Shown: positions 28,080 through 44,512 of the stretch, in pieces
How the letters are laid out: each line of letters starts with the position of its first letter
Position numbering within the stretch: position 1 is the first letter of the stretch
Source of the DNA: Candidatus Heimdallarchaeota archaeon
GTDB taxonomy: Archaea > Asgardarchaeota > Heimdallarchaeia > Heimdallarchaeales > Heimdallarchaeaceae
DNA: 64,000 bases
Assembly (NCBI GenBank): GCA_030603365.1
Contig: JAUVXV010000003.1
Span: forward strand, 64,001-128,000
Direction of reading: 5' to 3'
Position numbers and translations under genes: made by a program
Notes under the pieces: generated by a model
What the model was told of the DNA's origin: nothing
The model's database searches: none
What the model saw: the letters and a program-made list of their open reading frames with translations, nothing else

Positions 28080-28811
28080 TTGTTGTCTATGAAGTCAGAT
28101 ACATCTATTAAACGTCTTATTCGTTGCTATGAATCTGATATAACATGTACTGGAGGAGTGGTTTTTATCGGTGATGGTCATACTGGGAAGACACACTCGG
28201 CTTTAAGTTTATCAAGTTATAGAGAAGGAGCTTTTATTGATGCACAGTGTAGGTCGCTTTCTAAGTCAATAAATTTAGAGTTTGAATATTTTATTGCTCA
28301 TGCAAATATTGAGCAATTCAAAGTAACTGTTAGTTCGCAACTGTTTATCATGCCTGGACAAAAAGGAAAAGCAGAAAAGGGAACAGGTCTAGCATTTGAA
28401 GATGCTTTAGACCTTTATTTTGATATCAGATCAATTGATGAAGTCATTGTGTTGGTTCTAACTTACAGTTTGGTCGATATAACTACTTTTCAGAATCTTG
28501 AATACTGGTTAAATCAAGCAATTGAACATGAGCTTATACAAGATTATACAAGTATAGTTCTATTGGGAACACATCTGGATGCTGAAGATTCAGTTCTTGT
28601 TTCAGATGAAAATGTTCAGCAAGGAATACAGTTCATAGAGCGATATGTTGAGGATAAAATAGGTATTCATATTAGTCCTGAAAGGATTATACCAGTCAAA
28701 ATTTCAAATGTAACTCAAGAAGGTATTAAAGAATTTCAAGAGGCAATAAGTGAAGGTTTTTATCATTCATTTGGAATCAAAGAGATAATAGATGACCAGT
28801 TAAATTGTTAA
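28080..28811 (+). CDS. Divergent Rab/Ras-like small GTPase
   Basis: G1 GDGHTGKT, G3 MPGQ, TFQNLEYW, G4 GTHLD, G5 ISNV; alternative start at ATG 28089. Confidence 0.7.
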   Translation: MLSMKSDTSIKRLIRCYESDITCTGGVVFIGDGHTGKTHSALSLSSYREGAFIDAQCRSLSKSINLEFEYFIAHANIEQFKVTVSSQLFIMPGQKGKAEKGTGLAFEDALDLYFDIRSIDEVIVLVLTYSLVDITTFQNLEYWLNQAIEHELIQDYTSIVLLGTHLDAEDSVLVSDENVQQGIQFIERYVEDKIGIHISPERIIPVKISNVTQEGIKEFQEAISEGFYHSFGIKEIIDDQLNC

Positions 28812-28825
28812 TAAAGGTTGAGTAA

Positions 28826-31800
28826 ATGAAAAGAGTAGAATTAGGTAAAATTACTAGTATATTGTTAATAGCTTTATGTTTCAACTCAGTATTATATTAC
28901 AATATTTCAAATTCAAGAAATGAGGATTTCAATCCATTTTATCCTGGAACTGAGATCATCGATAATTCACCTCCTGATGATTATTTTTATGATGATTATG
29001 ATGATTACAACCCTTTTTCAAATAGAATAAAAACAGAAATATTTGAGGGAGATTATAAGACTCAAGCTTTCTTTAGTTTTAACACTTTTACAACAAATTT
29101 AGATGGTAATGGATCAGGTTATCAGTGGACAGAATATGATGCTATTCCAAGTCACAGTGCTGTTGGAATGGATGCTGAAAGATTTGGTACTGGTGATATA
29201 ACCAATGCGGTTGTACCTTCAGTCAATGATACCTACTACTTAATGGGAGCTGATTATTGGGGTTCTGGTAGATATGCGTTGATGTACAGCCCATTATTGA
29301 CATATGATACCACAATCTCCGATAAGGTTCATTATATCTTTAACATGCATAGAGACTTAAATGATGATCCATTCAATTCTCGATTTAATAATATGGATTC
29401 TACTCTCAAAATAACACTTTGGCATTTTGAAACATCAACTCTGACCTCAACAGAGATTACGTCAGTCGAATATCTTATGCCAAAAATTAATACACCTACT
29501 GATACAGAATATTGGGAATGGTTAGAAACAAATAGTTCATTTTCTTCTTATACAATTCCCGCAGGTGATAGGTTTAAGATCACTTATATGATGAAATATA
29601 ACGATGTGGGGGCAACTGCAGGGCATTATACACTTGATATTATGGCAGATGGACTATATTCAGATACCGGGATTTTAGGTACCAATCTTGATTGGACTAT
29701 AACTGATGGTGTTCATTCAAATAATTATGTTATTACAAGCACTGACGGTATGCTTGGAGTACAACTTTATATGATAGAGGAAAATACTCCTGATATTACA
29801 TTTTACAATGCAATCAATGATACCGTATATTATACTGCACAAGAAATGAATATTGATGTGACCCCTGGTTCAACCAGTTCATACAGATGGGATTATGGAA
29901 GTTGGCAAAGTTTCTCTACTTCAACCACCACCACTTTACCAGCTGTTCATGCTTGGCACTACTTAGAAATAAGAGCAAGTGAAACTGAATATAATAATAC
30001 CCGATATGAGTATTATCAATTTATTTATGATGCTTCAGAAACGAATTTTGAATTACATGCACCGTACACGAATGGTTCGACTATAACTGGAGGTATTTTG
30101 CTTAATTTTACAGTTTATTATGTGGATACGGCAACCTATGAGTGGGACAAAAACGGTACCCAATTTCCTCTAACAGATCCTTATGATATCATTACTCCTG
30201 ACTTTGAATTAGATCACAATATTACCATAAGAACCTCTGATTTCTATATGAATGAAACATTAAGGTATTTCTTCACATTTAATTCAGATCTACCTAGTGT
30301 GACACTTGATAATGTTTTGAATGGTGGAACATATGCACCTCTCAAAACAATAGATGTAGAAATCTTTGATTCAGTAGGAATAAAAGACGTCCAATATCAT
30401 TGGGATAGTGATTCTAATCTCACTTGGACACCAGCTACAGGTAATATCTATCGAACAAATCTCCCTCTTACTGATGGTGTTCATGTTCTGCATATTTATG
30501 CTTTAGACAATTACGATCAAGCGTTCTATACAAATTTTAATTTTATAACTGATAGTAACATTTTCTTAGTTGAATTACAGAATCTTTCTAACGATTCCTA
30601 TGTTCTGGGAGGAGAAACTGTCAAGATAACAATTCAGAAAAGCAATGGAACTGCTTATTTTGTGTGGGATAGTGGAGCGGTTAAAGTGGGGACAATAACA
30701 TCGCAAACAATGACATTAGCGGGAGCAAACAGCTTACCAACATCAGTAGGTTCACACAATCTTACAATAATTGCATTTGATACATTTGACGTTGAATATG
30801 TGTTCTATTTCAAGTTCATAGTTGACATAGAAGCTCCAAATATAGTACCTGACGAAATTTACAGTTTTAGACGCTATGTTTCTTCTGGCACTACAATGTA
30901 CTTTACAATTACGGATAATGAAGTTTTTGGGGAAAATCTTACAGTTCTGATATCAATTGATGGTACAGTAAATGAAACCTTGAGTGCTGGAGCTTATTTC
31001 TACAATTTAGATTATCTGGTTGATGGCACTCATAGTTTTTATCTCTATGCAATTGATCTTGCAGGGAATTCCGACATACTCTATGTCGAATTTACAATAG
31101 ATAACACCCCACCAGAACTTGAATATAAGATTCCAGAATTAGTTCCTCTAGGTAGCGATAATTATGTTCCTGGAAATGCTGAAGTGATAGTTACTGTCAG
31201 TGATGCTTATTCTGGTGTTATAACTTATTATACTTGGGGAGGAGAACAGCATACTTTTAACGAAAGCTTTGTACTGCCTGCCGAAAATGCCTCTGGAACA
31301 TTGATAATTTATGCATACGATGGGTTACACACTTCAACTAATATTACAAGTATAATTATAGATATCGAAGCTCCAAGTGTCACTCTTATCGGGATGACAA
31401 ATACAACAGAAGAAGTAAACTTTTATACAGCATTGTATTTTGAGACAAGTGATGATTTAGGAGACAATACGATAGAATTAGTTCGATATTCGTGGGACAT
31501 TCTCCCTGGTGCTTGGTATACTAGCTCTGAGCATGATTTTAATGTGTCAGTTATACCCTTCTATGAACATGAAGATAATGTTGTTTTCTATGTTTACATG
31601 AAAGATATTGTTGGAAATAATCACATTGAATGGTTCATATTTAAAATAGATGATGAACCACCTAATCTTGATTTAGAGTTTTACGATGCTTCCGAAGAGA
31701 AATGGTTGGATATTGGTGATTCATTCTTTGCTCAAAGCAATCAAACAATAAGATACAATTCTTATGTAAATGAACCGGGAGAATTAATAACCTTTAATTA

Positions 31801-33586
31801 TTATTGGGCTCATAAAGGTCCTGAGGAATACAAAGGTTCCTTGAATGTAACAGAAGAATATCCAACGTTTGAAACACCCGAAACAGATGGTAATTATACT
31901 TTGGTAGTTATATTAATTGATAATGTAAACAATGAAATTAGTTTTAATATCACTTTCTTGATTGATAATATAGTTTTAACTTTTAATAGACCTGATGATT
32001 TTGACGAGAGTACAAATGCGTATGTCAATACTACAAGTTTGATTTATGGTGAGAATGTCAGTTATATTGTAGAAGTCACAGATTCTCTTACTCATTCAGA
32101 GATAGTAGGTCTTAAAATAAATCTTAATAATTCAGCTTTTGATTTCATTGTTAATGTTACAAAACTTGATAGTATTACTTATGAAATTCTAATTGTAGCT
32201 AACAATGTCACTGATAGTATTTTTGCTAAAATAGAAATTCAATTCTATAAATGGGAAGAGAGTAAACAATATATCCAAATCTACTTGAAGGTGGATAAAA
32301 AAGAAGGATCTCTTTTCATTCATCAAAGTAGTGTTGATACAGTTACCTATGGAGAGATTATTCCTGTCATAATATATCTTCAAAATGACTTAGGTTTAAA
32401 TGAGACAATTCTGTCTATAGTAGTTAATGGATTGATTACTGATATCAAAATTTTAGGTGATGGGTTGTATCAATTTAACTTCTCATCCACCGCACTAACT
32501 AGTAAAGGAAATCATACTCTGGACATTCAAGTTCAATCTGAGTTCTTTTATGGTTCGAACAGTGTTTTTACAATTGAGGTTTTACCAATTCAGTCTCAGA
32601 TATCAGTTGAAGTTACGAGTTATGAAGTACTAGAAGAATCACAAGTAGTTATCAGAGGTTTACTAACAGCAGACGATGGAACACCTCTTTCTGACCAAGA
32701 AATACTGGTTTATGTTTATATTGTTGAAGAATCAAATGGAAGACTTGTCTATGCTTTGAATATAGACGATTATGATGATTATAGAATTATTACAGTGTAT
32801 ACAGATGCTGATGGTTACTTTACTGCATCTTTCCAGATGTATGAGGGAATAGAGTATATTGACATAGAAGTATTCTATGATGGTAATAATCATCATGATA
32901 TCTCCTCTTCTGTTCTAGATGCTTCTGTTTATTCAATGAAACCTCCAGGACTTCCATCTTGGTTATTATATACAATTATTGGTGGAAGCGTGCTTTTGGG
33001 TTTGATTGTTTCACTAATTATATACAAGATAGTTAAACCTAAACCATTTGAAGCTTTAATGGAAAAAATAACAGATGAACAAATAGCACTAAATTATTCT
33101 ATTATGTCTCCAGGTGTTGTTCTTTCCATTTTTGATCAAAGAAAAGGACCTGTACCTCTAGTAATGGATCATAGTTTAGAGCTAGGACAGTATGTAGGAC
33201 GACTAAGAATGGGGACAGAGAATTTCATACTTAAAATCTCTGACCAGGCATACAGCTCGCTTGGTTTCGAAGAACATGATACAGGTCGTAGAGTTGGTTC
33301 TATTGTTCTACCAGGAGAAAAAATGGTGGGATGGGTACATGGAATACAACTACCAAATGAAACCGCAAGAGGGGGATTTGAAAATCTTTCATTAATCGTT
33401 CTAGCAGATTCAGAATATAGTAATTTACTATTAAATTATCAAGATTACTTATACGATGAAGCAGACAAGTTAGTTGAAGTTCTAAAGGCAAAAAACCAGC
33501 TCGATAATATTAAAATCATTATAGAGGGAATAAGGAAGAAATCAGTAATAATAATGCTAGCAGCGCAAGGGATAGAAGAGAAATAA
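28826..33586 (+). CDS. Giant single-pass surface protein: signal peptide, Ig-like repeats, TM, cytoplasmic uDENN/longin-like domain (paralog A)
   Basis: Repeating YxWD...GxHxLxIxAxD...D..P units; TM WLLYTIIGG...IIY; tail with IFDQRKGP and LPNETARGG. Confidence 0.75.
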   Translation: MKRVELGKITSILLIALCFNSVLYYNISNSRNEDFNPFYPGTEIIDNSPPDDYFYDDYDDYNPFSNRIKTEIFEGDYKTQAFFSFNTFTTNLDGNGSGYQWTEYDAIPSHSAVGMDAERFGTGDITNAVVPSVNDTYYLMGADYWGSGRYALMYSPLLTYDTTISDKVHYIFNMHRDLNDDPFNSRFNNMDSTLKITLWHFETSTLTSTEITSVEYLMPKINTPTDTEYWEWLETNSSFSSYTIPAGDRFKITYMMKYNDVGATAGHYTLDIMADGLYSDTGILGTNLDWTITDGVHSNNYVITSTDGMLGVQLYMIEENTPDITFYNAINDTVYYTAQEMNIDVTPGSTSSYRWDYGSWQSFSTSTTTTLPAVHAWHYLEIRASETEYNNTRYEYYQFIYDASETNFELHAPYTNGSTITGGILLNFTVYYVDTATYEWDKNGTQFPLTDPYDIITPDFELDHNITIRTSDFYMNETLRYFFTFNSDLPSVTLDNVLNGGTYAPLKTIDVEIFDSVGIKDVQYHWDSDSNLTWTPATGNIYRTNLPLTDGVHVLHIYALDNYDQAFYTNFNFITDSNIFLVELQNLSNDSYVLGGETVKITIQKSNGTAYFVWDSGAVKVGTITSQTMTLAGANSLPTSVGSHNLTIIAFDTFDVEYVFYFKFIVDIEAPNIVPDEIYSFRRYVSSGTTMYFTITDNEVFGENLTVLISIDGTVNETLSAGAYFYNLDYLVDGTHSFYLYAIDLAGNSDILYVEFTIDNTPPELEYKIPELVPLGSDNYVPGNAEVIVTVSDAYSGVITYYTWGGEQHTFNESFVLPAENASGTLIIYAYDGLHTSTNITSIIIDIEAPSVTLIGMTNTTEEVNFYTALYFETSDDLGDNTIELVRYSWDILPGAWYTSSEHDFNVSVIPFYEHEDNVVFYVYMKDIVGNNHIEWFIFKIDDEPPNLDLEFYDASEEKWLDIGDSFFAQSNQTIRYNSYVNEPGELITFNYYWAHKGPEEYKGSLNVTEEYPTFETPETDGNYTLVVILIDNVNNEISFNITFLIDNIVLTFNRPDDFDESTNAYVNTTSLIYGENVSYIVEVTDSLTHSEIVGLKINLNNSAFDFIVNVTKLDSITYEILIVANNVTDSIFAKIEIQFYKWEESKQYIQIYLKVDKKEGSLFIHQSSVDTVTYGEIIPVIIYLQNDLGLNETILSIVVNGLITDIKILGDGLYQFNFSSTALTSKGNHTLDIQVQSEFFYGSNSVFTIEVLPIQSQISVEVTSYEVLEESQVVIRGLLTADDGTPLSDQEILVYVYIVEESNGRLVYALNIDDYDDYRIITVYTDADGYFTASFQMYEGIEYIDIEVFYDGNNHHDISSSVLDASVYSMKPPGLPSWLLYTIIGGSVLLGLIVSLIIYKIVKPKPFEALMEKITDEQIALNYSIMSPGVVLSIFDQRKGPVPLVMDHSLELGQYVGRLRMGTENFILKISDQAYSSLGFEEHDTGRRVGSIVLPGEKMVGWVHGIQLPNETARGGFENLSLIVLADSEYSNLLLNYQDYLYDEADKLVEVLKAKNQLDNIKIIIEGIRKKSVIIMLAAQGIEEK

Positions 33587-33600
33587 GAAGGAGGATTAAA

Positions 33601-36600
33601 ATGACTAGAAATAACAACAAGATTTTTGGACTAATACTTATAATTTTATGTTTTAATACAGTGACCCATCAAGAGATTCTAAACACAGAATCAACTAACT
33701 CTGATGTTGAAAACCTATTGAATGATCCTCCTTATACTCCAAGTTTTCCAGGCTATGTAGACAAAGCTGAAAATCCTGATGATAGTTCACTTATAACAAA
33801 TACCGAAATCGAGGGAGAGTTTCAAACTTTAGCATTTTTCCCTGGTGGAACAGGTAAAATTTATGGGGAATCTCGAGTAGGTGAGACCCTGATCAATGAT
33901 CCAGCAGGTGAGGATCCATATGATAGAAGAAATATTTTTGAATGGGTTACCTACGACGATATCAAAGATGATGGAACATTAAATAAAGAGATGTACTGGA
34001 GAGCTCTGAGTGATGAACCTCTTACTTGGCCGAATTCTACAGATTGGTTCTACATGAGAGAGAGAAATTCTCCACATGAACCTTCCAAAATTTATAGTCC
34101 AGTTTTCACAGAGGACTATGAAATCACAGGAAGAGTCTACTGGTTATCTTGGTTTGAATCAAATGACGATCCTCCTTTTTCAGAAGCAATAAACATTGGT
34201 TATCGTCAGAGTCTTTACCTCTTCAACCCAGCAGATCCTTCCAATCCCACTTTACTTGCTAGTATACAGAGTATATATTATGAACCTAACATCTGGGCAG
34301 GTCAAAGAACACACTTTGCAGATTTAGTTGGAACTACACTAATTCCTGCTGGTTATAGATTAAGATGGGATATTGAAATACGGTTCAGTTTAGTTCCTTC
34401 AGCAGGATCTTTTCTCCAGTATACTGGTTACCTACATACTGGTGGTGGTTCAACAACATGGACAATCGATGATCCTGATCCAATTTATGATAGCACATAT
34501 ACAATTAATAATGTGACAAGGATGTCAGGAATTCAACTTAGAATGCGTTCTAAAGGATATCCTACCATAAATGTGTTAGGAGCGACTGACAATGCTGTTT
34601 ATCAGGTTCTTCAGAATATGACTATCGATGTGACTGATGGTTCGATAAGTTCATATCAGTGGAATGGTGGAAGTTGGACTTCTTTTAGTGATTTAACGAC
34701 CACTTCTCTTCCTGATAATCATGGTTGGAATGAACTTGAAATAAAAGCAAGTGATCCAGTTTTTAACAACACAAAGATTGTTACTTATATCTTTGGATAT
34801 GATAAGTCCTTGATTAATGTTGTACTTAATAGTCCTCTTACGAATGGGTCGACTATAACGGGTGGAACTACCATTGATTTGGATGTTTTCAGTGTAAACC
34901 TAACAGAATACATGTGGGATAATAATGGAACGTGGGTTCTTTTAGAGAGTCCATATAACATAAGCGCTCCAGATTTTGATGGAGAACACATACTAACAGT
35001 TCGAACATCTGATTTCTACACTATTGAATCTGTTGTCTATATTTTTGTTTTCGATTCTACTAATCCAATAATTCAGTTATATAATGTAGTCAATGATACA
35101 ACGCATGCCCCCAACAAAGTAATTGAGTTCAATATTACAGATAATTCTGCTATTCAAACTGCTTACTATAATTGGGATTCAGGAACTGATCAATTATGGA
35201 CACCTGCACAAGGAACCATTTATCAAACTAGCCTACCAATAGGTATTGGATATCATGAACTAGTTACAAAAGCAAATGATACATTCGGTCATTATACTGA
35301 ACAATTCTATCGGTTTTATACAGATGATCAGTTGTTCTTATTAGAACTTGCTGAATTACGTAATGATTCTTATTATCTAGGTGGAGATGATGTTGTTATT
35401 AACGTTCAAAAAAGTAATGGAACCATTAAATATGTCTGGGATAGTGGTACTATCAAAGACGGGAGTATCATTGCATCTCAAATGACACTAACAGGTGTAG
35501 ATGCTATGCCTACTACAGCAGGTCCCCATAATTTAACAATTATAACTTTTGATCTTATAGGGACAATGTATGTTTTTTACTTTAACTTCATTGTAGACCT
35601 TGAAGCTCCAATCATAGATGGTTCAATAGTTTCTCTCTATAACGACACAAGATTTACGACTGATAACACAATGGAATTTATTATAACTGATAATTATACC
35701 CGAACAAACCAACTTATTATCTATATATCAATTGATGGTAAAGCTAACCAAACCCTTAACTCTCCTTTTGAATTACATCTCTATACATTTAACGATGCTA
35801 CTCACTATTTCACAATATATGTCTATGATTTAGCAGGTAATTACGCTATTCAGACCATCTTCTTCCATATTGATACTCTTGCACCTATAATTGAAATAGA
35901 TATCCCAAGTATGATTGTTTTTCAAGAAACGAATTATGTTACAACAGGGGCAGAAGTTATAGTTACTGTAGATGATTTAGATCCTCTTGTTGATACATTT
36001 TACTCTTGGTCAGGAGCTGCTAATTCAAGCTTCTCAGGAAGTATAACTTTAAGTTATGGAGATAGTACAGGTGATCTTCTAATATTCGCAAATGATTCGT
36101 TGGGACATCTTGATTATTATACTATTATTCTAATTATAGACAATACAGCCCCACAATTATTCCTTTCCTCCCCAAATGTGCTTGATGAAATTAATAGATT
36201 TACTGACCTCGAATTCGATATCAATGAAGAGAATATCCAAACAGTTAACTCTATTGGATATTATTGGGATAAATTGCCTTTTTATTATTTCAATACAACA
36301 TACGATAGTTACGATAGCTTTGCACTAAGAATTCCTTCCCTTTTCTTCGATGGACCAGGTGCATATGTAACAGGAAATACTGCAACTCTTGTAATAGAAC
36401 TTTATGACATCCTAGGACATTCTGTATTTGGTAGTTTCGATTTTATTATAGACAGAGATGCTCCTATTCCTGGTTTATACCTGAATGAAAGTGGTGTAAT
36501 AACGCAATTGGAAGAAGGAATCATTTATACAAGTTTAGGCGAAACACCTCTTCTGTATAAGAATGATACAAATGATGACATAGCGGATTTATACTGGATT

Positions 36601-38427
36601 TGGGATGATGACGATGCAACAGGTGATTCATTAGAATTTGGTGGTATTTTAACTGGTGGATATTTGCTAGTAGATATTGTGCCACCAGAAGATGGCCGTC
36701 ATTATCTAAGAGTAGTTTTAACAGATAATACGATAAGTAGTCAACCAAATTTTATAGAATATATTTTCAACATTACTGTAAATGATATTAATATTGATAT
36801 TACTGAACCTAATCCTGAAATGTGGGTTGAGGAAGCAGATTTCTTGTCTTACCATCATAGAATGAACTATACTGATTCATTTAGTTTTACTGTTAATATC
36901 ACAGATACAGTAGATGGTTTAGAAATTCCAGATTTGCAAAATAGAACTATTTCAAGAGTATATAATCTCTTAGCAAGCATTGTTCAACTTGACAATACTA
37001 TCTATGAATGTACTATTGTAGCTACTAATGTTACAAATGGTCTTGAAACACATATAGATTTTGAATTTTACTTAATCGACGGTGGTTCTCAGAAGCTAAG
37101 GTTTTACTTGATTGTAGATAAAAAACTTGGTAGTCTGGAAATACTTGATAAAACAGAACTTACAGTTCAATACGATGAGGATATCGATGTTTACATTGGG
37201 TTAAAAGATCATCTTAGTCAAAATCTTTCAATTATTTATGTTGAAGTCAACTCTCTGATTACTAGTTTTTACAATATAGAAAATACTACAGAATTCTGGT
37301 TCAGATATTCAACACATGGGTTAGAAGAAGGAGAGCATGCAATTACCATTTATGCAGAGAGTACATTTTATTATGCAAAATTGGAAGGTAATTTGACTTT
37401 CGAATTTACAGTCACTCCACTACCCATTTTCATAGATATACAAGTCTCCAATTCTACTGTTTTAGAAGGAACAGAATTTACAATAACTGCAGCATTAACC
37501 TTCCAAAATGGAACAGGATTTGCTGGACAACTTTTACACTTCTTTGTATACTCATATTCGTATGAAACAACAACAGGAGAAGTTTCAGCAGCAATCCCAA
37601 CAAATTATACAACTTATATTATATCAAACAGAACAACCAACATCAATGGTATAGCAACCATAATATTTACTATGTCAACTGAAATTGATTATGTCCTTAT
37701 TGCAGTTACTTATGATGGTGGTGATTTTGTTGACACTTCATACTCTGAATTTGATGAGAAGGTAGTTAAAATTTTTCTACCTGGTTTTCCAAGTTGGTTA
37801 CTTTATACTTTGATTGGTGGAAGTCTATTTGTAATTTTAATAATCTCCCTCATTGTTTATCGAGTAACACGAGGTAAACCATTCGAAGAAGTAATGGAAA
37901 TCGTAACAATTGATGAGATAAAAGAACGATATGAGACTTTATCACCTGGCGTGATTCTAACAATATTTGATCAGAAAAAAGGACCAATACCTCTTATTGC
38001 ATCTCATTCTCTAGACACAACTAGATATCTTGGTCGTATGCAGATTGGTGTTGAAAATTTTATGCTTAAAATAGCTGATCAAGCTTATAGCTCTCTAGGT
38101 TTTGAGGAGCATGATGTTGGAAGAAGAGTAGGTTCGATAATTCTTCCTACAGAGAAGATGATAGGATTTGTTCATGGTGTTCAACTCCCTAATAAGATGG
38201 CTCGAGGTGGTTTTGAAAATCTATCATTAATTGTTCTTGCAGATTCGGAATTTGGTAACTTATTACTAAATTATCAAGAATATATTTATGATGAAATTGA
38301 TGTTATTATTGAAGCTTTGAAGACTAAGAAGCATTTGAAACAAGTTGAAGAATTACTGCGAATAGTTAGACATAAATCAGTTAAGGTCATGCTTACCGCA
38401 GAAAAAGTTGAACAAAAGAAAGGATAA
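33601..38427 (+). CDS. Giant single-pass surface protein with cytoplasmic uDENN/longin-like domain (paralog B)
   Basis: Same architecture; tail with IFDQKKGP and LPNKMARGG; GGAGG before the ATG. Confidence 0.75.
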   Translation: MTRNNNKIFGLILIILCFNTVTHQEILNTESTNSDVENLLNDPPYTPSFPGYVDKAENPDDSSLITNTEIEGEFQTLAFFPGGTGKIYGESRVGETLINDPAGEDPYDRRNIFEWVTYDDIKDDGTLNKEMYWRALSDEPLTWPNSTDWFYMRERNSPHEPSKIYSPVFTEDYEITGRVYWLSWFESNDDPPFSEAINIGYRQSLYLFNPADPSNPTLLASIQSIYYEPNIWAGQRTHFADLVGTTLIPAGYRLRWDIEIRFSLVPSAGSFLQYTGYLHTGGGSTTWTIDDPDPIYDSTYTINNVTRMSGIQLRMRSKGYPTINVLGATDNAVYQVLQNMTIDVTDGSISSYQWNGGSWTSFSDLTTTSLPDNHGWNELEIKASDPVFNNTKIVTYIFGYDKSLINVVLNSPLTNGSTITGGTTIDLDVFSVNLTEYMWDNNGTWVLLESPYNISAPDFDGEHILTVRTSDFYTIESVVYIFVFDSTNPIIQLYNVVNDTTHAPNKVIEFNITDNSAIQTAYYNWDSGTDQLWTPAQGTIYQTSLPIGIGYHELVTKANDTFGHYTEQFYRFYTDDQLFLLELAELRNDSYYLGGDDVVINVQKSNGTIKYVWDSGTIKDGSIIASQMTLTGVDAMPTTAGPHNLTIITFDLIGTMYVFYFNFIVDLEAPIIDGSIVSLYNDTRFTTDNTMEFIITDNYTRTNQLIIYISIDGKANQTLNSPFELHLYTFNDATHYFTIYVYDLAGNYAIQTIFFHIDTLAPIIEIDIPSMIVFQETNYVTTGAEVIVTVDDLDPLVDTFYSWSGAANSSFSGSITLSYGDSTGDLLIFANDSLGHLDYYTIILIIDNTAPQLFLSSPNVLDEINRFTDLEFDINEENIQTVNSIGYYWDKLPFYYFNTTYDSYDSFALRIPSLFFDGPGAYVTGNTATLVIELYDILGHSVFGSFDFIIDRDAPIPGLYLNESGVITQLEEGIIYTSLGETPLLYKNDTNDDIADLYWIWDDDDATGDSLEFGGILTGGYLLVDIVPPEDGRHYLRVVLTDNTISSQPNFIEYIFNITVNDINIDITEPNPEMWVEEADFLSYHHRMNYTDSFSFTVNITDTVDGLEIPDLQNRTISRVYNLLASIVQLDNTIYECTIVATNVTNGLETHIDFEFYLIDGGSQKLRFYLIVDKKLGSLEILDKTELTVQYDEDIDVYIGLKDHLSQNLSIIYVEVNSLITSFYNIENTTEFWFRYSTHGLEEGEHAITIYAESTFYYAKLEGNLTFEFTVTPLPIFIDIQVSNSTVLEGTEFTITAALTFQNGTGFAGQLLHFFVYSYSYETTTGEVSAAIPTNYTTYIISNRTTNINGIATIIFTMSTEIDYVLIAVTYDGGDFVDTSYSEFDEKVVKIFLPGFPSWLLYTLIGGSLFVILIISLIVYRVTRGKPFEEVMEIVTIDEIKERYETLSPGVILTIFDQKKGPIPLIASHSLDTTRYLGRMQIGVENFMLKIADQAYSSLGFEEHDVGRRVGSIILPTEKMIGFVHGVQLPNKMARGGFENLSLIVLADSEFGNLLLNYQEYIYDEIDVIIEALKTKKHLKQVEELLRIVRHKSVKVMLTAEKVEQKKG

Positions 38428-38525
38428 TTCTTCTTCTTTTTACCGCCTTTATCGATATATTATTATTGTATTTTCCGACAATTATCATAAAGGTTATATT
38501 AACACTAGTAATTAGAGGCTCAATT

Positions 38526-40421
38526 ATGTCCTATCTCTTCGATGAACTATCAGGAAAAGAAGACAGCAAAGCTACAGTTGAAGATAAGATTCTTCTTATG
38601 GGTCTTCAAGCTGCAGGAAAAACTGCTATCAAAGACGTTGTCTTCTTCAACAAACAACCTGAAGAAGTTAACGATTATATGGCTACAGTACACTATCAAA
38701 GACAGTTCATTGATGAAGAACAAAAAAGTATGATTATAGACTCTGGTGGACAAGAAAGTTATTGGAATGAAGCTGTTACTCATTTTAGACATCTTGTTTT
38801 TTCCAATGTTAAGTTGTTAGTATGGATTGTAGATGTTACAAAACCAGAATTATTCGAAGAATCAGAAAGACGATTCAGTTTTACAATACGACAATATAAA
38901 AAAGAGAATCCAGATGGAAGCATCACTGTTTTATGCCACAAAGTTGATTTAGTTACTCCAGAAAAAATGATTGTAATTCATCAACATGTTAGAGATATGT
39001 TCAGTGATCCTCGTTTTGAAGTTGATTTCGAAAATACTAGTATCTACTACTCTGACAGTCTCAAAGAATTATTATTTACTATAATGGATGAAGCTGGTAT
39101 TAACACTAAACGATTCGAACTTATCTCTAATCTTGGTCAGAAAGTTGAAGAGAGTGATGAATTCCAGAGTTATGTTATGGAACATCAGGAAGATCCAAGA
39201 GTCCAACAGTTACGTGATTATTTAAATCCTGAACCTGAAGCTCTACTTCCTTCTTTTGGAAAATTAACTTTGCAATTCGATCTGAAAGAGTATGACATTG
39301 TTGAAATAGTACTTATTGAAAAAGAAACGAATTCTCCCATAGTTGGAGCTTCATCTCAAGCTAATGTAACTGCTGAAAATTCCATGGAATATCTTATTGG
39401 TCTTCATGATTTTAAGAATAAGTTAAAAGAAAATGGAGAAAGTATAGACCCAACAGGGACAGTGTTTACATCATCTACAGGAAAAGTACATGCATTGGTG
39501 TTCAGTCTTGATGTTAATTATCTCCTTATTACTTCTTTCGATCCAATAACTGACGAGAGGAAAGAATTACTTTTTGAGCTAATCCTTAGATTCGCTCAAT
39601 CAACAACTGCAGCTGCAGAAGCTCCTCCTCCTCCTAGTGCTCCAGCTGTTATTGAAGAACCAGTTGCTCAACCCGATCCAATCGCTGAACAACCTGTTGC
39701 ACAACCAGAACCAGTTAAAGCAGCTGAAGAAGTGGCAGTTGCTCAAGAAACAATTGAGGTTCAAGAAGAAATTCCAGTTGAAGTAGCGGCTCCATTAGAA
39801 GTTGAAACTGCTGTCCCGGAAGCAAAACCAATTAAAATTGAAGAGATATTAACTGCTGAAGAAAAAGATGCAGGATTTTTCGAACCAGCTATAGTTGGGG
39901 ATGAATTTCTAGGTAAGGAAGAGCCTGTTACAGTAGTTGAATCTGAACCAATTCCTGCCACAACGGAAGAAGTTACAAAAATCTCTCAACCTGAGGTACA
40001 AGAGAAAGTTGCTGAAGCTGTTTCTGGAGAAAGAGAAGTTAAAATTGAAGACCCAGTTCCAGTTGTAACACCTCCAACACCTCAACCTGCTAAAGTTGTT
40101 GAAGAAGGTGTTCCTGAACCTCCCAAAGTTGAACTTGAACCTGAACCAACTCCTATTACTGAGGAACCTAAGGTAGAACTAATTCCTGTTCTAGCTGAAG
40201 TAGGAACACCCAAACAAGATCCAGTTGAAGCTACAGGAGATGGATTAACGATTAATTTTTCAGCTGATGATATCAAAAACTTTGCAAACTTCTTAGTTCA
40301 GAAAAAAGAAATAATTCTAGATGAATCTATAAATATCGAAGATATTAAAGGACTGTCCAATTTCTTATTTAAAGGGATAACAGAAGATAAAGAAGAACAA
40401 AAAGAAGAAGAATCAGACTAA
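38526..40421 (+). CDS. Rag/Gtr-like GTPase + roadblock domain + long acidic Pro/Glu/Val-rich tail
   Basis: KILLMGLQAAGKT, ATV, DSGGQ, VFSNV, HKVD, TSIY; first ATG at 38526. Confidence 0.82.
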   Translation: MSYLFDELSGKEDSKATVEDKILLMGLQAAGKTAIKDVVFFNKQPEEVNDYMATVHYQRQFIDEEQKSMIIDSGGQESYWNEAVTHFRHLVFSNVKLLVWIVDVTKPELFEESERRFSFTIRQYKKENPDGSITVLCHKVDLVTPEKMIVIHQHVRDMFSDPRFEVDFENTSIYYSDSLKELLFTIMDEAGINTKRFELISNLGQKVEESDEFQSYVMEHQEDPRVQQLRDYLNPEPEALLPSFGKLTLQFDLKEYDIVEIVLIEKETNSPIVGASSQANVTAENSMEYLIGLHDFKNKLKENGESIDPTGTVFTSSTGKVHALVFSLDVNYLLITSFDPITDERKELLFELILRFAQSTTAAAEAPPPPSAPAVIEEPVAQPDPIAEQPVAQPEPVKAAEEVAVAQETIEVQEEIPVEVAAPLEVETAVPEAKPIKIEEILTAEEKDAGFFEPAIVGDEFLGKEEPVTVVESEPIPATTEEVTKISQPEVQEKVAEAVSGEREVKIEDPVPVVTPPTPQPAKVVEEGVPEPPKVELEPEPTPITEEPKVELIPVLAEVGTPKQDPVEATGDGLTINFSADDIKNFANFLVQKKEIILDESINIEDIKGLSNFLFKGITEDKEEQKEEESD

Positions 40422-40423
40422 GT

Positions 40424-41653
40424 TTAAACTGGTCTGCTGTCATCATATCTTCTATATTCTAAATCTCCATCAAGAAAGATTGGTATTTCTCTTATACCTT
40501 CTACACATTCATGTAATGGGAACATCTCAACTGATGTTGCACCAAATCCTTTTTGGACTTTAATACCTCTTTCAAGATTTTCAGAATTTTCTACTGCAAC
40601 ATCGATTATAGATTTCTGAAGATTACGACCACAAATATCACATTTAAATGAGATTGACTGTTCTACTCTTCTTTCAATTGTTTCACCTTTCTCAAGACCT
40701 TTTTTGAGTAGGTAATCTACTAAAGTGCCTTTCATCTTTATTCTTGCTCTTCCTATTAGTTCATCTGCTTGGAAAAGCTCTTTCATCTCAGCGGCAAGAT
40801 TCATGAAGTATTCTATCTCTTCATCTACTGAATGCTGAGGAGGAAAGACAGTTGTTAGAATAAGATCTTGATCTACTTCTCTCATATATACTCTGTTTTC
40901 ATCAAATGAGAATGTCACATAATCTAATTGTAATGTTGGTGAAAACATCTTGGCAAGATCATTTTTTAGTTTAACAAAATTGAATCCTGTATATCTCTCT
41001 GGTTGAGAATAGAGCATTAGACCTTGAGCAGTTGATAATGAAAGAAAAACCAAATCTTGTTTGCTAAAAGCTTCCTTAATTTTAACAGACTTTGTATCAT
41101 CTTTTGGAAAGACATATGCAATCACTTGTTGCATTGCGTCCCAGATTGTATCTTCAAAGATTGAAGTTGCAAATAGATCAGCATTCGTAAATTTGTCAAT
41201 CTCAAAAATATCTTTTATTGATTGTAAAACAGGTTCTCTTTTATTTGGTGGAACAACATCCATTTTATGTGCAAAAACATAAATTCTTGCTCCCTCTGAT
41301 AGTTGTTTAGCGTTTTCCATTGTCAGATCAAAATAATACTTAGATCTCATAATGTTTGAAGCATCAGAAATATCGATAACGAAAATGAATGCTTTTACAT
41401 CACTGAAGGTTCTTTCTTTGTATTGTTCAAATACTTCATTCAAGTAATTGGATTGCCCTCCAACATCAAATAGGTTAATGGCACTTCCTGCAAGATTGAA
41501 CAGTTTTCTGTTAATACGAACAGTCGCAGGGTTCATTGATGTTGCTTCTGGAGCAAAGCCTTCGAAAACTACTTGACGTATAGAAGTTTTACCAGACTGA
41601 GATAAGCCAAGAACGACAATTTTGGATTCTAATTCATTTCCACCAGTGTACAT
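40424..41653 (-). CDS. Rag/Gtr-like GTPase + roadblock domain + C-terminal Zn-binding domain
   Basis: GLSQSGKT, PATV, FDVGGQ, HKMD, TSIFED; CDIC...HEC at the C-terminus. Confidence 0.85.
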   Translation of the reverse strand: MYTGGNELESKIVVLGLSQSGKTSIRQVVFEGFAPEATSMNPATVRINRKLFNLAGSAINLFDVGGQSNYLNEVFEQYKERTFSDVKAFIFVIDISDASNIMRSKYYFDLTMENAKQLSEGARIYVFAHKMDVVPPNKREPVLQSIKDIFEIDKFTNADLFATSIFEDTIWDAMQQVIAYVFPKDDTKSVKIKEAFSKQDLVFLSLSTAQGLMLYSQPERYTGFNFVKLKNDLAKMFSPTLQLDYVTFSFDENRVYMREVDQDLILTTVFPPQHSVDEEIEYFMNLAAEMKELFQADELIGRARIKMKGTLVDYLLKKGLEKGETIERRVEQSISFKCDICGRNLQKSIIDVAVENSENLERGIKVQKGFGATSVEMFPLHECVEGIREIPIFLDGDLEYRRYDDSRPV

Positions 41654-42054
41654 GTACCTTCATGTCTAAACCTATTATTTCCTTATAAAATGTTTATGTT
41701 ACTCCTAAATTATAAGTAGATGGTTTCAAACTTTATTAGAACGAATTTCATGATTTTGTTCTAGATAGTTTGTCTGAAGGTCTCCTTCTTGTAAGATGGG
41801 GTTTCGAATCATGAACTCTTACTGGCTAACACGACCACCTTCTTGAATAGGGCACCTTTTTGAAAGGTATCAGTCTTTACAGCAAAATGCAACAAGAATT
41901 ATAAGTGTGATAGTATGATGGGGATTGAGTAATATGAACAGAAGAATGATCAAGTTAGTTTTTCCAGTATTTCTCTTTTCTCTTACACTTTGCGTTGTCT
42001 CAGTATAGAGAAAATATGCAAAAAGATAATAACATCTTTCTTCACATTTTAGTT

Positions 42055-43497
42055 ATGGCCTACGATGTGATTGTAATAGGTTCAGGTTTGGGTGGATTGG
42101 TGGCAGCCGCGAAACTTGCTAAAGAGGGGAAGAAAGTTCTTGTTGTTGAACAGCATTCCAGTATAGGAGGATATGCAACCTGCTTTACAAAGAAAAATTT
42201 CACTGTCGATGTAGGTTTCCATTCTATGGATGGGCTCTATGTTCAAGATCCCAAAATAAAAGTTTTCGAAGATTTAGATGTTTATATTAATATCGAGTTC
42301 ATTAAAATCCCAACAGGTTATTTCAGATTTACTAATGAGAGAGTTGATTTTACTTTACCTGATACAGTTGATGAAGCTATTACCGAACTTAAACAACAAT
42401 TTCCAGAAGAAGAAAAGGGTATTCGTACTTTCTTTAAAACCATTGAAAACATATCAACATCAAAGTGGAGTAATAAATCAGTAGGAGAAATGTTAGATTC
42501 ATTATTTCGAAATGATGATATTAAATTAGTCTTAACAGGGGCAATGTTATATTATGGTGATGATCCTTATACTACTTCAGCTAAAGCATTCTCAACTGCA
42601 GTTTCAAGGATATTCAAAGGAGGAAATCATTACATAAAGGGAGGTTCGTTGAAACTTACAGATTATTTTGCAAATTTTATTAAAGAACATGGGGGTACTA
42701 TTACTTTAAATAAAAAAGTTACAAAAATTCTTACTGACTCTCTTGGTTTAATTACAGGAGTTGAATATGAGTCAACTTCTAATGATGATACTGTGAAAAC
42801 TCAAGTTGATGCTAACTTTGTTATTCTAAATGCTTCAGTACCTCAAGTAGCAAATGTTTTGTTACCTGAAAATGAGACTACCTCTCTATTAAGAGAAGCA
42901 GTTAAACAAATGAAATTAGGCCATTCTGTTCTGAATGTCTATTTAGGGTTTGATACTCCCCTTGATAAATTAGGTCACAAAGATTATCTTACCGTTGTAA
43001 ACGACCAAAGTGTTTTCAAGCTTAGTGATGTATTTGGGAACAATAATACAGGTTATTCAAAAAGGAATTTTCTCTTTGTAGATTACAGTCAAATTGATAG
43101 TGGGATGGCCCCATATGGGAAAAGTACGGGTGTTATTAGTACAATTGATTATATAGAAAATTGGTCTAAGTTGGATGAAGACAATTATAAGTCAAAGAAA
43201 AAGCAAGTTGAAACAGAATTCATTGAAAGATTAGACAAACTCATTCCAGGTGTTAAAGATCACATAGAGTTCGTTAGTGTTGCAACACCAAAAACAATGA
43301 AAAGATATACACTCAATCCAAAAGGATCAATCATTGGATTTGCTCGAACACCAATCCAAGTGGAAATGTACCCTCTAAAATCACCAATAAAGAACTTGTA
43401 TTTCTCATCTACTTGGTCAATTCCAGATGGAGGGTTTACTTCAATAATAGAAGCTGGATGGAATAGTGCTGTTTCAATATTAAGAAAAAGAAGATAG
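42055..43497 (+). CDS. Phytoene desaturase (CrtI)-family FAD-dependent oxidoreductase
   Basis: IGSGLGG, EQH..IGGY, GGS..L, ATPKT..RYT.NP.GSI.G, NLYF..W..P.GG. Confidence 0.85.
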   Translation: MAYDVIVIGSGLGGLVAAAKLAKEGKKVLVVEQHSSIGGYATCFTKKNFTVDVGFHSMDGLYVQDPKIKVFEDLDVYINIEFIKIPTGYFRFTNERVDFTLPDTVDEAITELKQQFPEEEKGIRTFFKTIENISTSKWSNKSVGEMLDSLFRNDDIKLVLTGAMLYYGDDPYTTSAKAFSTAVSRIFKGGNHYIKGGSLKLTDYFANFIKEHGGTITLNKKVTKILTDSLGLITGVEYESTSNDDTVKTQVDANFVILNASVPQVANVLLPENETTSLLREAVKQMKLGHSVLNVYLGFDTPLDKLGHKDYLTVVNDQSVFKLSDVFGNNNTGYSKRNFLFVDYSQIDSGMAPYGKSTGVISTIDYIENWSKLDEDNYKSKKKQVETEFIERLDKLIPGVKDHIEFVSVATPKTMKRYTLNPKGSIIGFARTPIQVEMYPLKSPIKNLYFSSTWSIPDGGFTSIIEAGWNSAVSILRKRR

Positions 43498-43516: not shown

Positions 43517-44512
43517 CTATCTGAATTCAAGTTTGTTTATTTTCAGGAATTCTTCATGAACTAAATGACTCAGTGCAAAAAGAAACTGAGGATAACTCTG
43601 ATTAGGATTCATTTCCTTGTAAGTATCAAGTATAGATTTTTCATGATTAGTCAGATAGAATACTATAAGTTCCTTACAGAGAATTTTGATGTTGGGACTC
43701 AGTTCTTGGAAAATAGTGGCTTGCTCAGTATTAAATCTTCGTAGACCTTCAGAAGATGACTTTGGAAAAGCGATTGTGGAATTAACAAGGAGATCTAACT
43801 CGACAAGATTTCTTTCTGTAGGTTCTTCAACGATATTATCATCTATGAATTCAGCAATTAATTTCAAAACCACTTCATCTAGATATACTAGTGATTCAAG
43901 AGTATCTGCTATATGTTGTATCCATTTTCTAGCTTCAGTAAATGGAAAAGATTTTTGTCCTTGTTTTGAAGCTGTTTTTAGTTGATGTTTCCACTCCTTA
44001 TAGATCCGATCTACTATTTTGGCAGAAATAAAAACTTGTATCTCAATAAACCCTAGAGTTGACTTTATTGTAATTCTTTTTCCTTCTTCTTTTTTGTCAA
44101 AAGTATATTTGCTGTTTCGGATTTTGTCAGTTATCTCCAAACCTGTGATATTTATCCTTTCGAAAGTTTTAGTGTCAAAGACCTTTTCTACCATTGCAAT
44201 TTTTTGGGGAGTAGGAATTCCAAGTGATTTAAAAATATCTTGTTCATCTTCTCCTGTTGAAAAATCTCTATCAGTTTCATAACCATAGTGAGTCGATTTA
44301 ATGTGAACCTGAGATCTTACTGTAAGAAAATTATCAATAAAACACTTTATTGCAGAGAGATTGTTCTGAGCACAGTTATGGACATCAACAAATTCTAGAA
44401 TTGTTGAAAGAGTATCAGATTTCAGTAGCTTAGATGGAATGTTTAGATTCCGTTGCTTTTGACATTTATTGCATTGATATTCTACCTTTTTTATTCCATT
44501 CTGACTACTCAC
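43517..44512 (-). CDS. Hypothetical protein with N-terminal CxxC...HxC Zn-binding domain
   Basis: CNKC...VHNC...FIDNFLTVR; possible C-terminal winged helix. Confidence 0.6.
   Translation of the reverse strand: MSSQNGIKKVEYQCNKCQKQRNLNIPSKLLKSDTLSTILEFVDVHNCAQNNLSAIKCFIDNFLTVRSQVHIKSTHYGYETDRDFSTGEDEQDIFKSLGIPTPQKIAMVEKVFDTKTFERINITGLEITDKIRNSKYTFDKKEEGKRITIKSTLGFIEIQVFISAKIVDRIYKEWKHQLKTASKQGQKSFPFTEARKWIQHIADTLESLVYLDEVVLKLIAEFIDDNIVEEPTERNLVELDLLVNSTIAFPKSSSEGLRRFNTEQATIFQELSPNIKILCKELIVFYLTNHEKSILDTYKEMNPNQSYPQFLFALSHLVHEEFLKINKLEFR

Follow-up and report, generated by a model that had tools for sequence, protein, structure and literature searches.

Giant proteins with predicted FLCN/SMCR8-type longin tails, encoded beside Rag-like GTPases: a conserved gene module of Heimdallarchaeia

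The window described here is a stretch of 64,000 nucleotides (nt) of a Heimdallarchaeial genome of about 33% G+C (Candidatus Heimdallarchaeota archaeon, GenBank assembly GCA_030603365.1, contig JAUVXV010000003.1, positions 64,001 to 128,000 of the forward strand), and our subject is a run of five genes at 28080-41653. These encode an atypical small GTPase (P0001), two very large proteins that we call giant A and giant B (P0002 and P0003), and two GTPases of the Rag/Gtr family (P0004 and P0005). On balance, and by a modest measure, we favor the view that they form a conserved Heimdallarchaeial module, in which giants at the cell surface hold a FLCN/SMCR8-type longin domain under the membrane, where it would act on the adjacent Rag/Gtr GTPases. 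The evidence consists of the layout of the locus, a membrane topology read from the sequence, the longin fold of the giants' tails, the invariance of two motifs in these tails, the identity of two of the GTPases as Rag-like, the repeated linkage of the two kinds of gene, and fusions of longin and GTPase elsewhere. A first-pass annotation of this DNA had proposed a receptor-coupled GTPase-activating protein (GAP)/Rag system; its longin tails and its conserved linkage are borne out below, while binding, a GAP role, and a signal from outside are what we infer from them. The features are as follows (window positions, strand, description).

28080..28811, +, P0001, atypical small GTPase, 243 amino acids (aa); partial Pfam Ras match, motifs kept in orthologues
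28826..33586, +, giant A (P0002), 1586 aa; N-terminus like a signal peptide, then a variable head, putative Ig-like repeats, stalk, one transmembrane segment, longin tail
29786..31969, +, giant A, tandem array of eight ~90-aa repeats (aa 321-1048); iterated hidden Markov model (HMM), domain E 4e-22 to 5e-11
32957..33034, +, giant A, single transmembrane segment (aa 1378-1403); the sole 19-mer stretch with a Kyte-Doolittle mean of at least 1.8
33095..33583, +, giant A, predicted cytoplasmic FLCN/SMCR8-type longin domain (aa 1424-1586); alignments, and Pfam Folliculin at E 0.017, sub-threshold
33146-33151, +, giant A longin, GP motif
33368-33370, +, giant A longin, codon of the invariant Arg1515
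33601..38427, +, giant B (P0003), 1608 aa; architecture as in giant A
34558..36783, +, giant B, tandem array of eight ~90-aa repeats (aa 320-1061); iterated HMM
37786..37869, +, giant B, single transmembrane segment (aa 1396-1423); hydrophobicity, and a helix in the AlphaFold2 (AF2) model
37930..38424, +, giant B, predicted cytoplasmic FLCN/SMCR8-type longin domain (aa 1444-1608); AF2 fold and structure matches
37981-37986, +, giant B longin, GP motif
38203-38205, +, giant B longin, codon of the invariant Arg1535
38526..40421, +, P0004, long Rag/Gtr-like GTPase, 631 aa from ATG 38526; Pfam Gtr1_RagA
about 38586-39059, +, P0004 G domain, followed by a conserved middle domain, a linker (about 39651-40235) and a short conserved C-terminus
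40424..41653, -, P0005, Rag/Gtr-like GTPase, 409 aa; Pfam Gtr1_RagA, AF2, Foldseek
41111-41653, -, P0005 G domain
40772-41098, -, P0005 roadblock domain
40472-40654, -, P0005 CCHC zinc-ribbon-like end

The open reading frames (ORFs), taken from an ORF listing and translated, lie at 28080-28811 (+), 28826-33586 (+), 33601-38427 (+), 38466-40421 (+), and 40424-41653 (-). Gaps of 14 nt separate P0001 from giant A and giant A from giant B, and P0004 and P0005 converge with their stop codons 2 nt apart. The gene order and coordinates thus agree with the first-pass annotation, which had described a Rab-like GTPase, two giants, a Rag-like GTPase, and a second Rag-like GTPase met head-on. Two starts deserve correction: P0004 most likely begins at ATG 38526, as its orthologues do, and not at TTG 38466, which would give it a spurious hydrophobic leader; P0001 probably begins at ATG 28089, its invariant M4.

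Each giant opens with a K/R-rich segment followed by a hydrophobic one, as read from the sequence, and each holds one strong hydrophobic 19-mer stretch (aa 1378-1403 in giant A; aa 1396-1423 in giant B) with K/R residues after it. N-x-S/T sequons occur at 2.4-2.5 per 100 aa in the ectodomains versus 0-0.5 in the three GTPases, and this density, together with the hydrophobic segments, agrees with an ectodomain that is secreted and glycosylated and with a C-terminus in the cytoplasm. The architecture proposed at first pass, of a signal peptide, an ectodomain, one transmembrane segment, and a conserved tail of ~180 aa, is retained, with a signal-like N-terminus, a single hydrophobic segment, and tails of ~183-185 aa that are the best-conserved part of the giants.

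Using an alignment of 24 tails, AF2 modeled the tail of giant B with a predicted local distance difference test (pLDDT) score of 91.4 and a predicted template modeling (pTM) score of 0.83. The model runs from the transmembrane helix through two short helices into b-b-a-b-b-b-a-a, which is longin topology (E51-58, E62-70, H85-100, E110-116, E121-131, E139-149, H160-175, H180-208). Among solved structures, the best VIA-align 2 matches are the Loki longin 8yqg (Z 12.9), C9orf72/SMCR8 7o2w (Z 11.9), FLCN 6nzd_H (Z 11.6; root-mean-square deviation 2.8 over 136 residues), and Lst4 (Z 11.5). SMCR8/C9orf72, GATOR1, and FNIP2 chains occupy the next ranks, with GAP-class Z scores that include 10.2 and 9.7; the best adaptor-complex subunit (AP-5) scores Z 9.2, and SNARE and TRAPP longins Z ≤8.7. 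Foldseek concurs: among its matches is FLCN from 8dhb, the active GAP complex, at 21% identity to the tail, and longin domains fill the match lists of both methods. A shape search of the ESM Atlas also agrees, having returned SMCR8, C9orf72, and uDENN FLCN/SMCR8 clusters. A feature search of the same atlas gave small Asgard proteins at scores of ≤0.86, one cluster being labeled NPR2 on 19% of its members, and we treat it as a lead only. A longin fold had been set as a test of the first proposal and it held: the closest structures are those of FLCN, SMCR8/C9orf72, Lst4, NPRL, and FNIP2, and not the longins of SNARE, TRAPP, or adaptor type. Pfam Folliculin matches to the tails stay sub-threshold (giant B: E 0.0014, 18.9 bits) and hit the same region of the profile in four divergent proteins. 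By modeled structure and by motif, the tails classify as FLCN/SMCR8-type (GAP-class) longins, although the sequence-profile threshold is not reached.

The motifs come from the same 24 tails, which fall into two subfamilies only 22-31% identical to each other. Invariant throughout are G51, F57, Q59, G62, P65, D94, S98, F102, R136, G137, E140, N141, and R191, and these residues include two motifs: FDQ..GP.P on the first two strands, and ARGG.EN, whose ARGG loop lies between strands 4 and 5. Within GP.P, G62 and P65 are invariant and P63 nearly so (Ala in 3/24). When soluble and GTPase-fused Asgard longins are added to the alignment, the F, the G and second Pro of GP.P, and the R and G remain invariant, whereas the first Pro, that of the GP pair, is replaced by Ala in a few tails and is thus nearly invariant. 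The model places the GP at the loop and start of strand 2 (which begins at residue 62) and the Arg in the strand 4-5 loop. The invariant Arg-Gly(-Gly) is a candidate counterpart of the arginine fingers FLCN R164, SMCR8 R147, and NPRL2 R78, and the ARGG loop may be akin to the "ARG" loop of FLCN.

In published work, the GP motif marks GAP-type longins (FLCN, NPRL2, SMCR8, and C9orf72) and is missing in FNIP2, NPRL3, and non-GAP longins; some Asgard longins carry both the GP motif and an arginine finger (PMC12290439). With an invariant Arg beside a GP motif, a GAP role is, by analogy, the most likely one for the tails.

How widely do such tails occur? A search of 1.84 billion representative proteins returned 54 matches, all of them C-terminal in large proteins or in fragments, and these split into a close and a distant subfamily; no eukaryotic protein was reached by this search. 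When 400 genomes of the phylum were compared, tails matching strongly were almost confined to this class. One further ORF of this genome may belong here: a 189-aa ORF at G000:C14:102343-102651 (L042 5197-5766, +; L-numbers are our labels of comparison loci) falls in no Pfam family, matches the broadened longin profile at E 1e-4, and may, judging by that match, be a soluble longin of the same class.

The two downstream GTPases are both Rag-like, as had been suggested. P0005 matches Pfam Gtr1_RagA with 123.8 bits (E 9e-36) and P0004 with 91.7 bits (E 6e-26), against a cut-off of 22; the pair carries the G4 motifs HKMD and HKVD, and DxGGQ is present in both. The proposed division of the pair into a RagA-like and a RagC-like member is not supported: both score better against RagA/Gtr1 than against RagC/Gtr2, and their best PDB sequence matches are RagA for P0005 (E 2e-22) and Gtr1/RagA for P0004 (E 6e-13).

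The AF2 model of P0005 consists of a G domain, then a-bb-a-bbb-a (a roadblock domain), and a small beta-rich end; its top Foldseek matches are RagA and Gtr1 over about 300 columns, with a TM-score by target of 0.8. In 25 orthologues, C338, C341, H381, and C383 are invariant and are accompanied by a conserved EYRRY..SRP end. This end (40472-40654, -) is modeled as a small beta-rich zinc-ribbon-like domain, which eukaryotic Rags do not have. The idea that the same zinc module is shared with a 331-aa ORF at 43517-44512 (-) was considered and found unsupported, the BLASTP match (E 0.38) falling in an unrelated stretch; a motif-level comparison was not made.

For P0004, comparison of the middle domain with the P0005 profile and with the PDB yielded no roadblock domain. 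The sole pointer to a Rag/roadblock arrangement comes from language-model features, for which the closest clusters are Rag/Gtr ones with lengths of 309-416 aa (score 0.97). The linker of P0004 (39651-40235, +) is ~195 aa of low complexity, rich in Pro, Glu, Val, and Ala, and precedes the short conserved C-terminus; its length varies among orthologues, which measure 490 to 631 aa.

P0001 is atypical. Its G1 reads GDGxTGKT and its G4 GTHLD, and its G3, I[ML]PGQKG, lacks the Walker-B Asp (DxxG) and is followed by an insert after switch II; these motifs are kept in orthologues at 47-56% identity. Pfam Ras matches only residues 122-181 (E 2.4e-6), and a PDB profile search found only Rab21/Sec4 (E 0.006-0.02). 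We would therefore describe P0001 as a divergent GTPase-like protein that looks only marginally Rab-like and does not show the canonical Rab G1-G5 set, where the first-pass annotation had called it Rab-like outright: what is left of that call is a remote Ras/Rab likeness (Pfam Ras over residues 122-181, PDB E 0.006, no DxxG Asp). Once the start of P0004 is corrected, none of the three GTPases carries a lipid-anchor motif or a transmembrane segment.

The link between tails and Rags is more than a feature of this one locus. We define a four-gene core as a P0001-like gene, one or more giants, a long Rag, and a 407-409-aa Rag. This core is complete in three genomes with differing flanks (L001, L003, and L004) and in 7/7 further loci of families f1 and f7 (f-numbers being our labels of families), one of which is rearranged with all four members kept. 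P0001 has an orthologue in 10/10 complete modules elsewhere. At 10/12 same-family loci the G domain of a Rag starts directly after the tail gene; of the other two, one lies in a tandem of three giants, where the next gene is a giant, and one was not resolved. Family f32 has a giant of 2321 aa that lies between two Rag-like genes.

Conservation of the neighborhood, the second test set for the first proposal, held across families of the class and was repeated at two paralogous loci of this genome. Here two more tailed giants, on another contig, each adjoin a short Rag-like GTPase without a roadblock domain. Four of the five best Gtr1_RagA genes of this genome adjoin a tailed giant, which by a rough estimate would happen by chance with a probability of <1e-5. 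The fifth stands alone (G000:C9:81714-82202; L041 9640-10224, +): it is short, a strong match, and has no tailed giant beside it, its neighbors encoding Nre, a protein like DJ-1 in which Big_13 matches weakly, and a beta-helix protein of the NosD kind.

In other Asgard families this longin occurs in different company. It is fused to a Rag G domain and a C-terminal domain in a 476-aa protein (L026 6476-7906, -), to a Ras/Rab-like GTPase in one of 355 aa (L027 1787-2854, -), and to a DENN-like domain in a soluble protein of 389 aa (L028 5465-6634, -), and all three share the SIFD..GP.P and ARGG motifs.

These findings can be assembled into a working scheme. One or two giant, glycosylated, single-pass surface proteins would place a longin directly under the cell membrane, and the tails would pair there into a longin platform on the inner face, as a heterodimer where there are two giants and as a homodimer where there is one. 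This platform would dock the G domain of a Rag-like GTPase, and the invariant Arg of the ARGG loop, beside the GP motif, would stimulate GTP hydrolysis, as happens with FLCN, NPRL2, and SMCR8 in eukaryotes. P0005 and the long Rag would probably pair through roadblock domains, like RagA/RagC. P0001 would be the constant fourth member, to which we assign no role. When both tails were modeled as a complex with GTP and the G domain of P0005, the score was 0.04 against a mark of 0.32; this prediction was run without controls and counts neither way.

A careful reader should weigh several results against this scheme. The tails miss the gathering score of Pfam PF11704 (Folliculin), with 15.4-18.9 bits against a cut-off of 23.3, and a search of tail profiles against PDB sequences gave no FLCN, SMCR8, or NPRL2 chain, the sole match being the Loki longin 8yqg (E 0.0017). 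They also lack the DENN domain of FLCN/SMCR8, the protein ending about 25 residues past longin helix 3, and among the relatives only the soluble L028 protein has one; calling the tails "folliculin-like," as the first-pass annotation did, is apt for the longin half and not for the rest. Arg1535 is only a putative equivalent of FLCN Arg164. The best structural match, 8yqg, has the GP motif and no Arg at that loop, and so the fold alone does not imply GAP chemistry. The longin GAPs known from eukaryotes all form asymmetric heterodimers that contain a single Arg finger, whereas both giant tails keep the Arg. Finally, giants of the sister family f5 end in tails that share the invariant residues, and no GTPase lies within about 10 kb of them.

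The f5 giants merit a brief description. Their ORFs reach 10,431 aa, with up to seven copies per genome (G075:C193:39637-40224, G070:C10:124834-125418, L007, L032, and L033). Tandem cassettes of three genes occur, with a very large giant, a giant of ~1550 aa, and a protein of ~900-1025 aa; the last shows a weak tail match in 2/3 cassettes examined.

Some of the points above could be turned into other explanations. The tail might be a membrane anchor or a platform of the guanine nucleotide exchange factor (GEF) type, comparable to Ragulator or to the TRAPP/Mon1-Ccz1 longin/roadblock platforms, with the Arg and GP serving binding or folding. Most longin and roadblock platforms are indeed GEFs or scaffolds (PMC10933270), the tail sits immediately beneath the membrane, GTPases with neither lipid anchor nor transmembrane segment need a tether, and a doubled Arg is unlike the asymmetric eukaryotic GAP dimers. 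This is a serious alternative, which we nevertheless consider unlikely: the GP motif is reported to be specific to GAP-type longins, the nearest folds are GAP longins, and an exposed-loop Arg-Gly-Gly that stays invariant across subfamilies 22% identical, and in the GTPase-fused forms, is typical of a catalytic finger. In addition, a contact of the Ragulator type would call for a roadblock domain, which the short Rag-like GTPases of the paralogous loci lack.

That there is no direct functional link at all, the tail being a dimerization or stabilizing module and the GTPase genes neighbors by descent, strikes us as very improbable. The f5 loci without GTPase neighbors would agree with it, and related genomes are non-independent samples; yet the linkage is found at three separate loci of one genome, it survives rearrangement in L040 and L029, and it is mirrored by the gene fusions elsewhere.

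The ectodomains raise a different question, namely in which direction the module works. An HMM iterated from the segment that matches Big_13 finds eight tandem repeats of ~90 aa per ectodomain, at about aa 320-1060, and a weak ninth at aa 1215-1241 in giant A and at aa 1208-1271 in giant B. The fifth repeat overlaps the Pfam Big_13 match itself, which is sub-threshold in both giants (22.7 and 16.4 bits, cut-off 27; giant B at E 0.013, aa 684-759) and is recorded for many orthologues. The first ~320 residues of each giant form a distinct head. Giants A and B are 39% identical overall, 22-24% in their heads, and 74% in their tails. In each of the comparisons with 17 relatives, conservation is highest in the longin tail (52-77% identity, with 27-50% for the ectodomain). 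The heads of relatives are of A-type and B-type, and L004, the one other two-giant locus compared, keeps the order. A feature search of the ESM Atlas with the giant B head gave scores of ≤0.86 and no usable lead.

These ectodomains could belong to outside-in receptors: contact or a ligand at the head would alter tail pairing, and with it GAP activity on a Rag-like heterodimer, which would make the module a plasma-membrane ancestor of the lysosomal Rag-FLCN/GATOR1 switch. We regard this extension of the scheme as possible but doubtful. A reversed direction is another serious alternative, quite unlikely in our judgment, and it can be combined with the favored GAP scheme: here the tail would serve the GTPases as a handle for placing, clustering, trafficking, or turning over giant adhesins, for example on protrusions. 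The tail would in that case be an effector or a cargo tag and not a regulator, and no external ligand would be sensed. It would suit a tail that is a general ending of giant repeat proteins, including adhesin-looking ORFs of up to about 10,000 aa, and ectodomains that are repeat-rich, glycosylated, and fast-evolving, like adhesins and surface-layer proteins; nor was a ligand-binding domain recognized in the heads, by Pfam or by the feature search with the giant B head. Such a role leaves unexplained the catalytic-type Arg and GP motifs, as well as the covalent longin-GTPase fusions in lineages without giants.

How does the GAP scheme compare with systems already known? FLCN-FNIP (yeast Lst7-Lst4), the longin-DENN GAP for RagC/D (Gtr2), resembles the module in several ways: FLCN and Lst4 rank high among the structural matches, a GP motif is present at strand 2, an Arg (here a candidate finger) sits in a loop of ARG type, and there is a genetic association with Rag-family GTPases. 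It differs in having a DENN domain, in that both paired tails here would keep the Arg, and in the sub-threshold profile score of the tails. Here the longin forms the C-terminus of a single-pass surface protein of ~1600 aa and does not belong to a soluble complex, and its setting would be the cell membrane rather than the lysosome. Similarly, GATOR1 (NPRL2-NPRL3) and C9orf72-SMCR8 contain longins of the same class with the GP motif and an arginine finger (a candidate one here), and appear among the structural matches (7o2w, 6lt0, 8fw5, and 8adl). Those, however, are soluble eukaryotic assemblies of large size and multi-domain build, with RagA/B or Arf as their targets, and no counterpart of DEPDC5 or WDR41 was seen in this locus.

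Within the Asgard archaea, "Folliculin/SMCR8 longin domain-containing" proteins have been described as soluble, with an arginine finger as well as the GP motif, and their GTPase partner was left open (PMC12290439). Heimdall FLCN-like longin+DENN proteins are also on record, together with a DENN/LAMTOR1-like/Rab-like operon whose GTPase is non-Rag (Liu et al., bioRxiv 10.1101/2020.10.19.343400). The longins described here belong to the same class and phylum and carry the same motifs, and L028 is a soluble longin+DENN protein of this published kind; the differences lie in the fusion to a giant surface protein and in linked GTPases that belong to the Rag/Gtr family. Fusions of longin or roadblock domains to GTPases have been described from Asgard archaea as well, and in a cultured Loki strain the genome layout does not let GTPases be matched to their regulators (PMC10933270). 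Our L026 and L027 fusions, and the Loki Roadblock-Longin 8yqg as best structural match, tie the module to that group. In the fusions one chain holds both parts, whereas here the genes are separate and the longin would be membrane-anchored through the giant ectodomain; 8yqg, for its part, lacks the Arg of the ARGG loop.

Plexins, which are single-pass receptors of animals, have a GAP domain in the cytoplasm that acts on Rap GTPases. They resemble the giants in outline, with a big ectodomain, one transmembrane segment, and a cytoplasmic regulator of small GTPases that is possibly dimerization-dependent; the plexin GAP fold is RasGAP-like and unrelated to longin, and control by a ligand is hypothetical here. 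MglA-MglB, a bacterial pair of a Ras-like GTPase and its roadblock-dimer GAP, and Ragulator provide prokaryotic and eukaryotic precedents for roadblock/longin dimers as membrane platforms for small GTPases. MglB, however, is a roadblock protein without GP or Arg finger and matches the tail only at Z 6.7, and Ragulator binds the roadblock domains of Rags, which the short Rag partners here do not have.

As far as novelty is concerned, FLCN-type longins in Asgard archaea are already published; it is their fusion to giant surface proteins and the conserved link to Rag genes for which we found no description. The first-pass annotation had known of no receptor-longin/Rag locus, and the literature that we searched contains none, with the proviso that coverage was incomplete and that the supplementary sequences of PMC12290439 lay outside the comparison. 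Nor did we find described an architecture in which the regulator domain of a small GTPase is tethered to the membrane as the tail of a giant extracellular protein.

Rag GTPases and longin GAPs (FLCN-FNIP and GATOR1) form the core of eukaryotic nutrient sensing, and the origin of their pairing is an open question on which the module bears. Which GTPase family partners the GP-motif Asgard longins is a question that PMC12290439 posed. For Heimdallarchaeia, the module supplies a longin-GTPase match: several families keep the two together, paralogous loci repeat the arrangement, and other lineages fuse them. Heimdallarchaeia are considered to be among the closest relatives of eukaryotes, and the module is a testable candidate for an archaeal precursor of the Rag nutrient-sensing switch; its cytoplasmic parts are small enough for direct biochemistry and structure work. 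Were the outside-in extension true, a plasma-membrane forerunner of the lysosomal Rag-FLCN/GATOR1 switch would already have been present in the archaeal relatives of eukaryotes.

A few observations on the surroundings may be useful to those who work on this genome. The sequencing runs listed for it include no RNA; they are DNA from cold-seep and marine-sediment metagenomes in which it holds small shares, and they are silent on expression and habitat. Genes for a P-type ATPase, 2Fe-2S/FAD oxidoreductases, and an amine oxidase flank the module and are not kept with it in other genera. The P-type cation ATPase lies upstream (21691-24660, +); in L004 it stands directly before the module, and in other genera it is not found at the module flank. 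A flavin amine-oxidase gene adjoins the module here (41995-43497, +) and in L004 (24255-24758). Its N-terminal match to the GDI family is weak and covers only the dinucleotide-binding motif. In L028, from a distant Asgard family, an amine-oxidase gene (3975-5441) adjoins the gene for the soluble FLCN-like longin+DENN protein, and the presence of an amine oxidase beside longin genes may be a coincidence.

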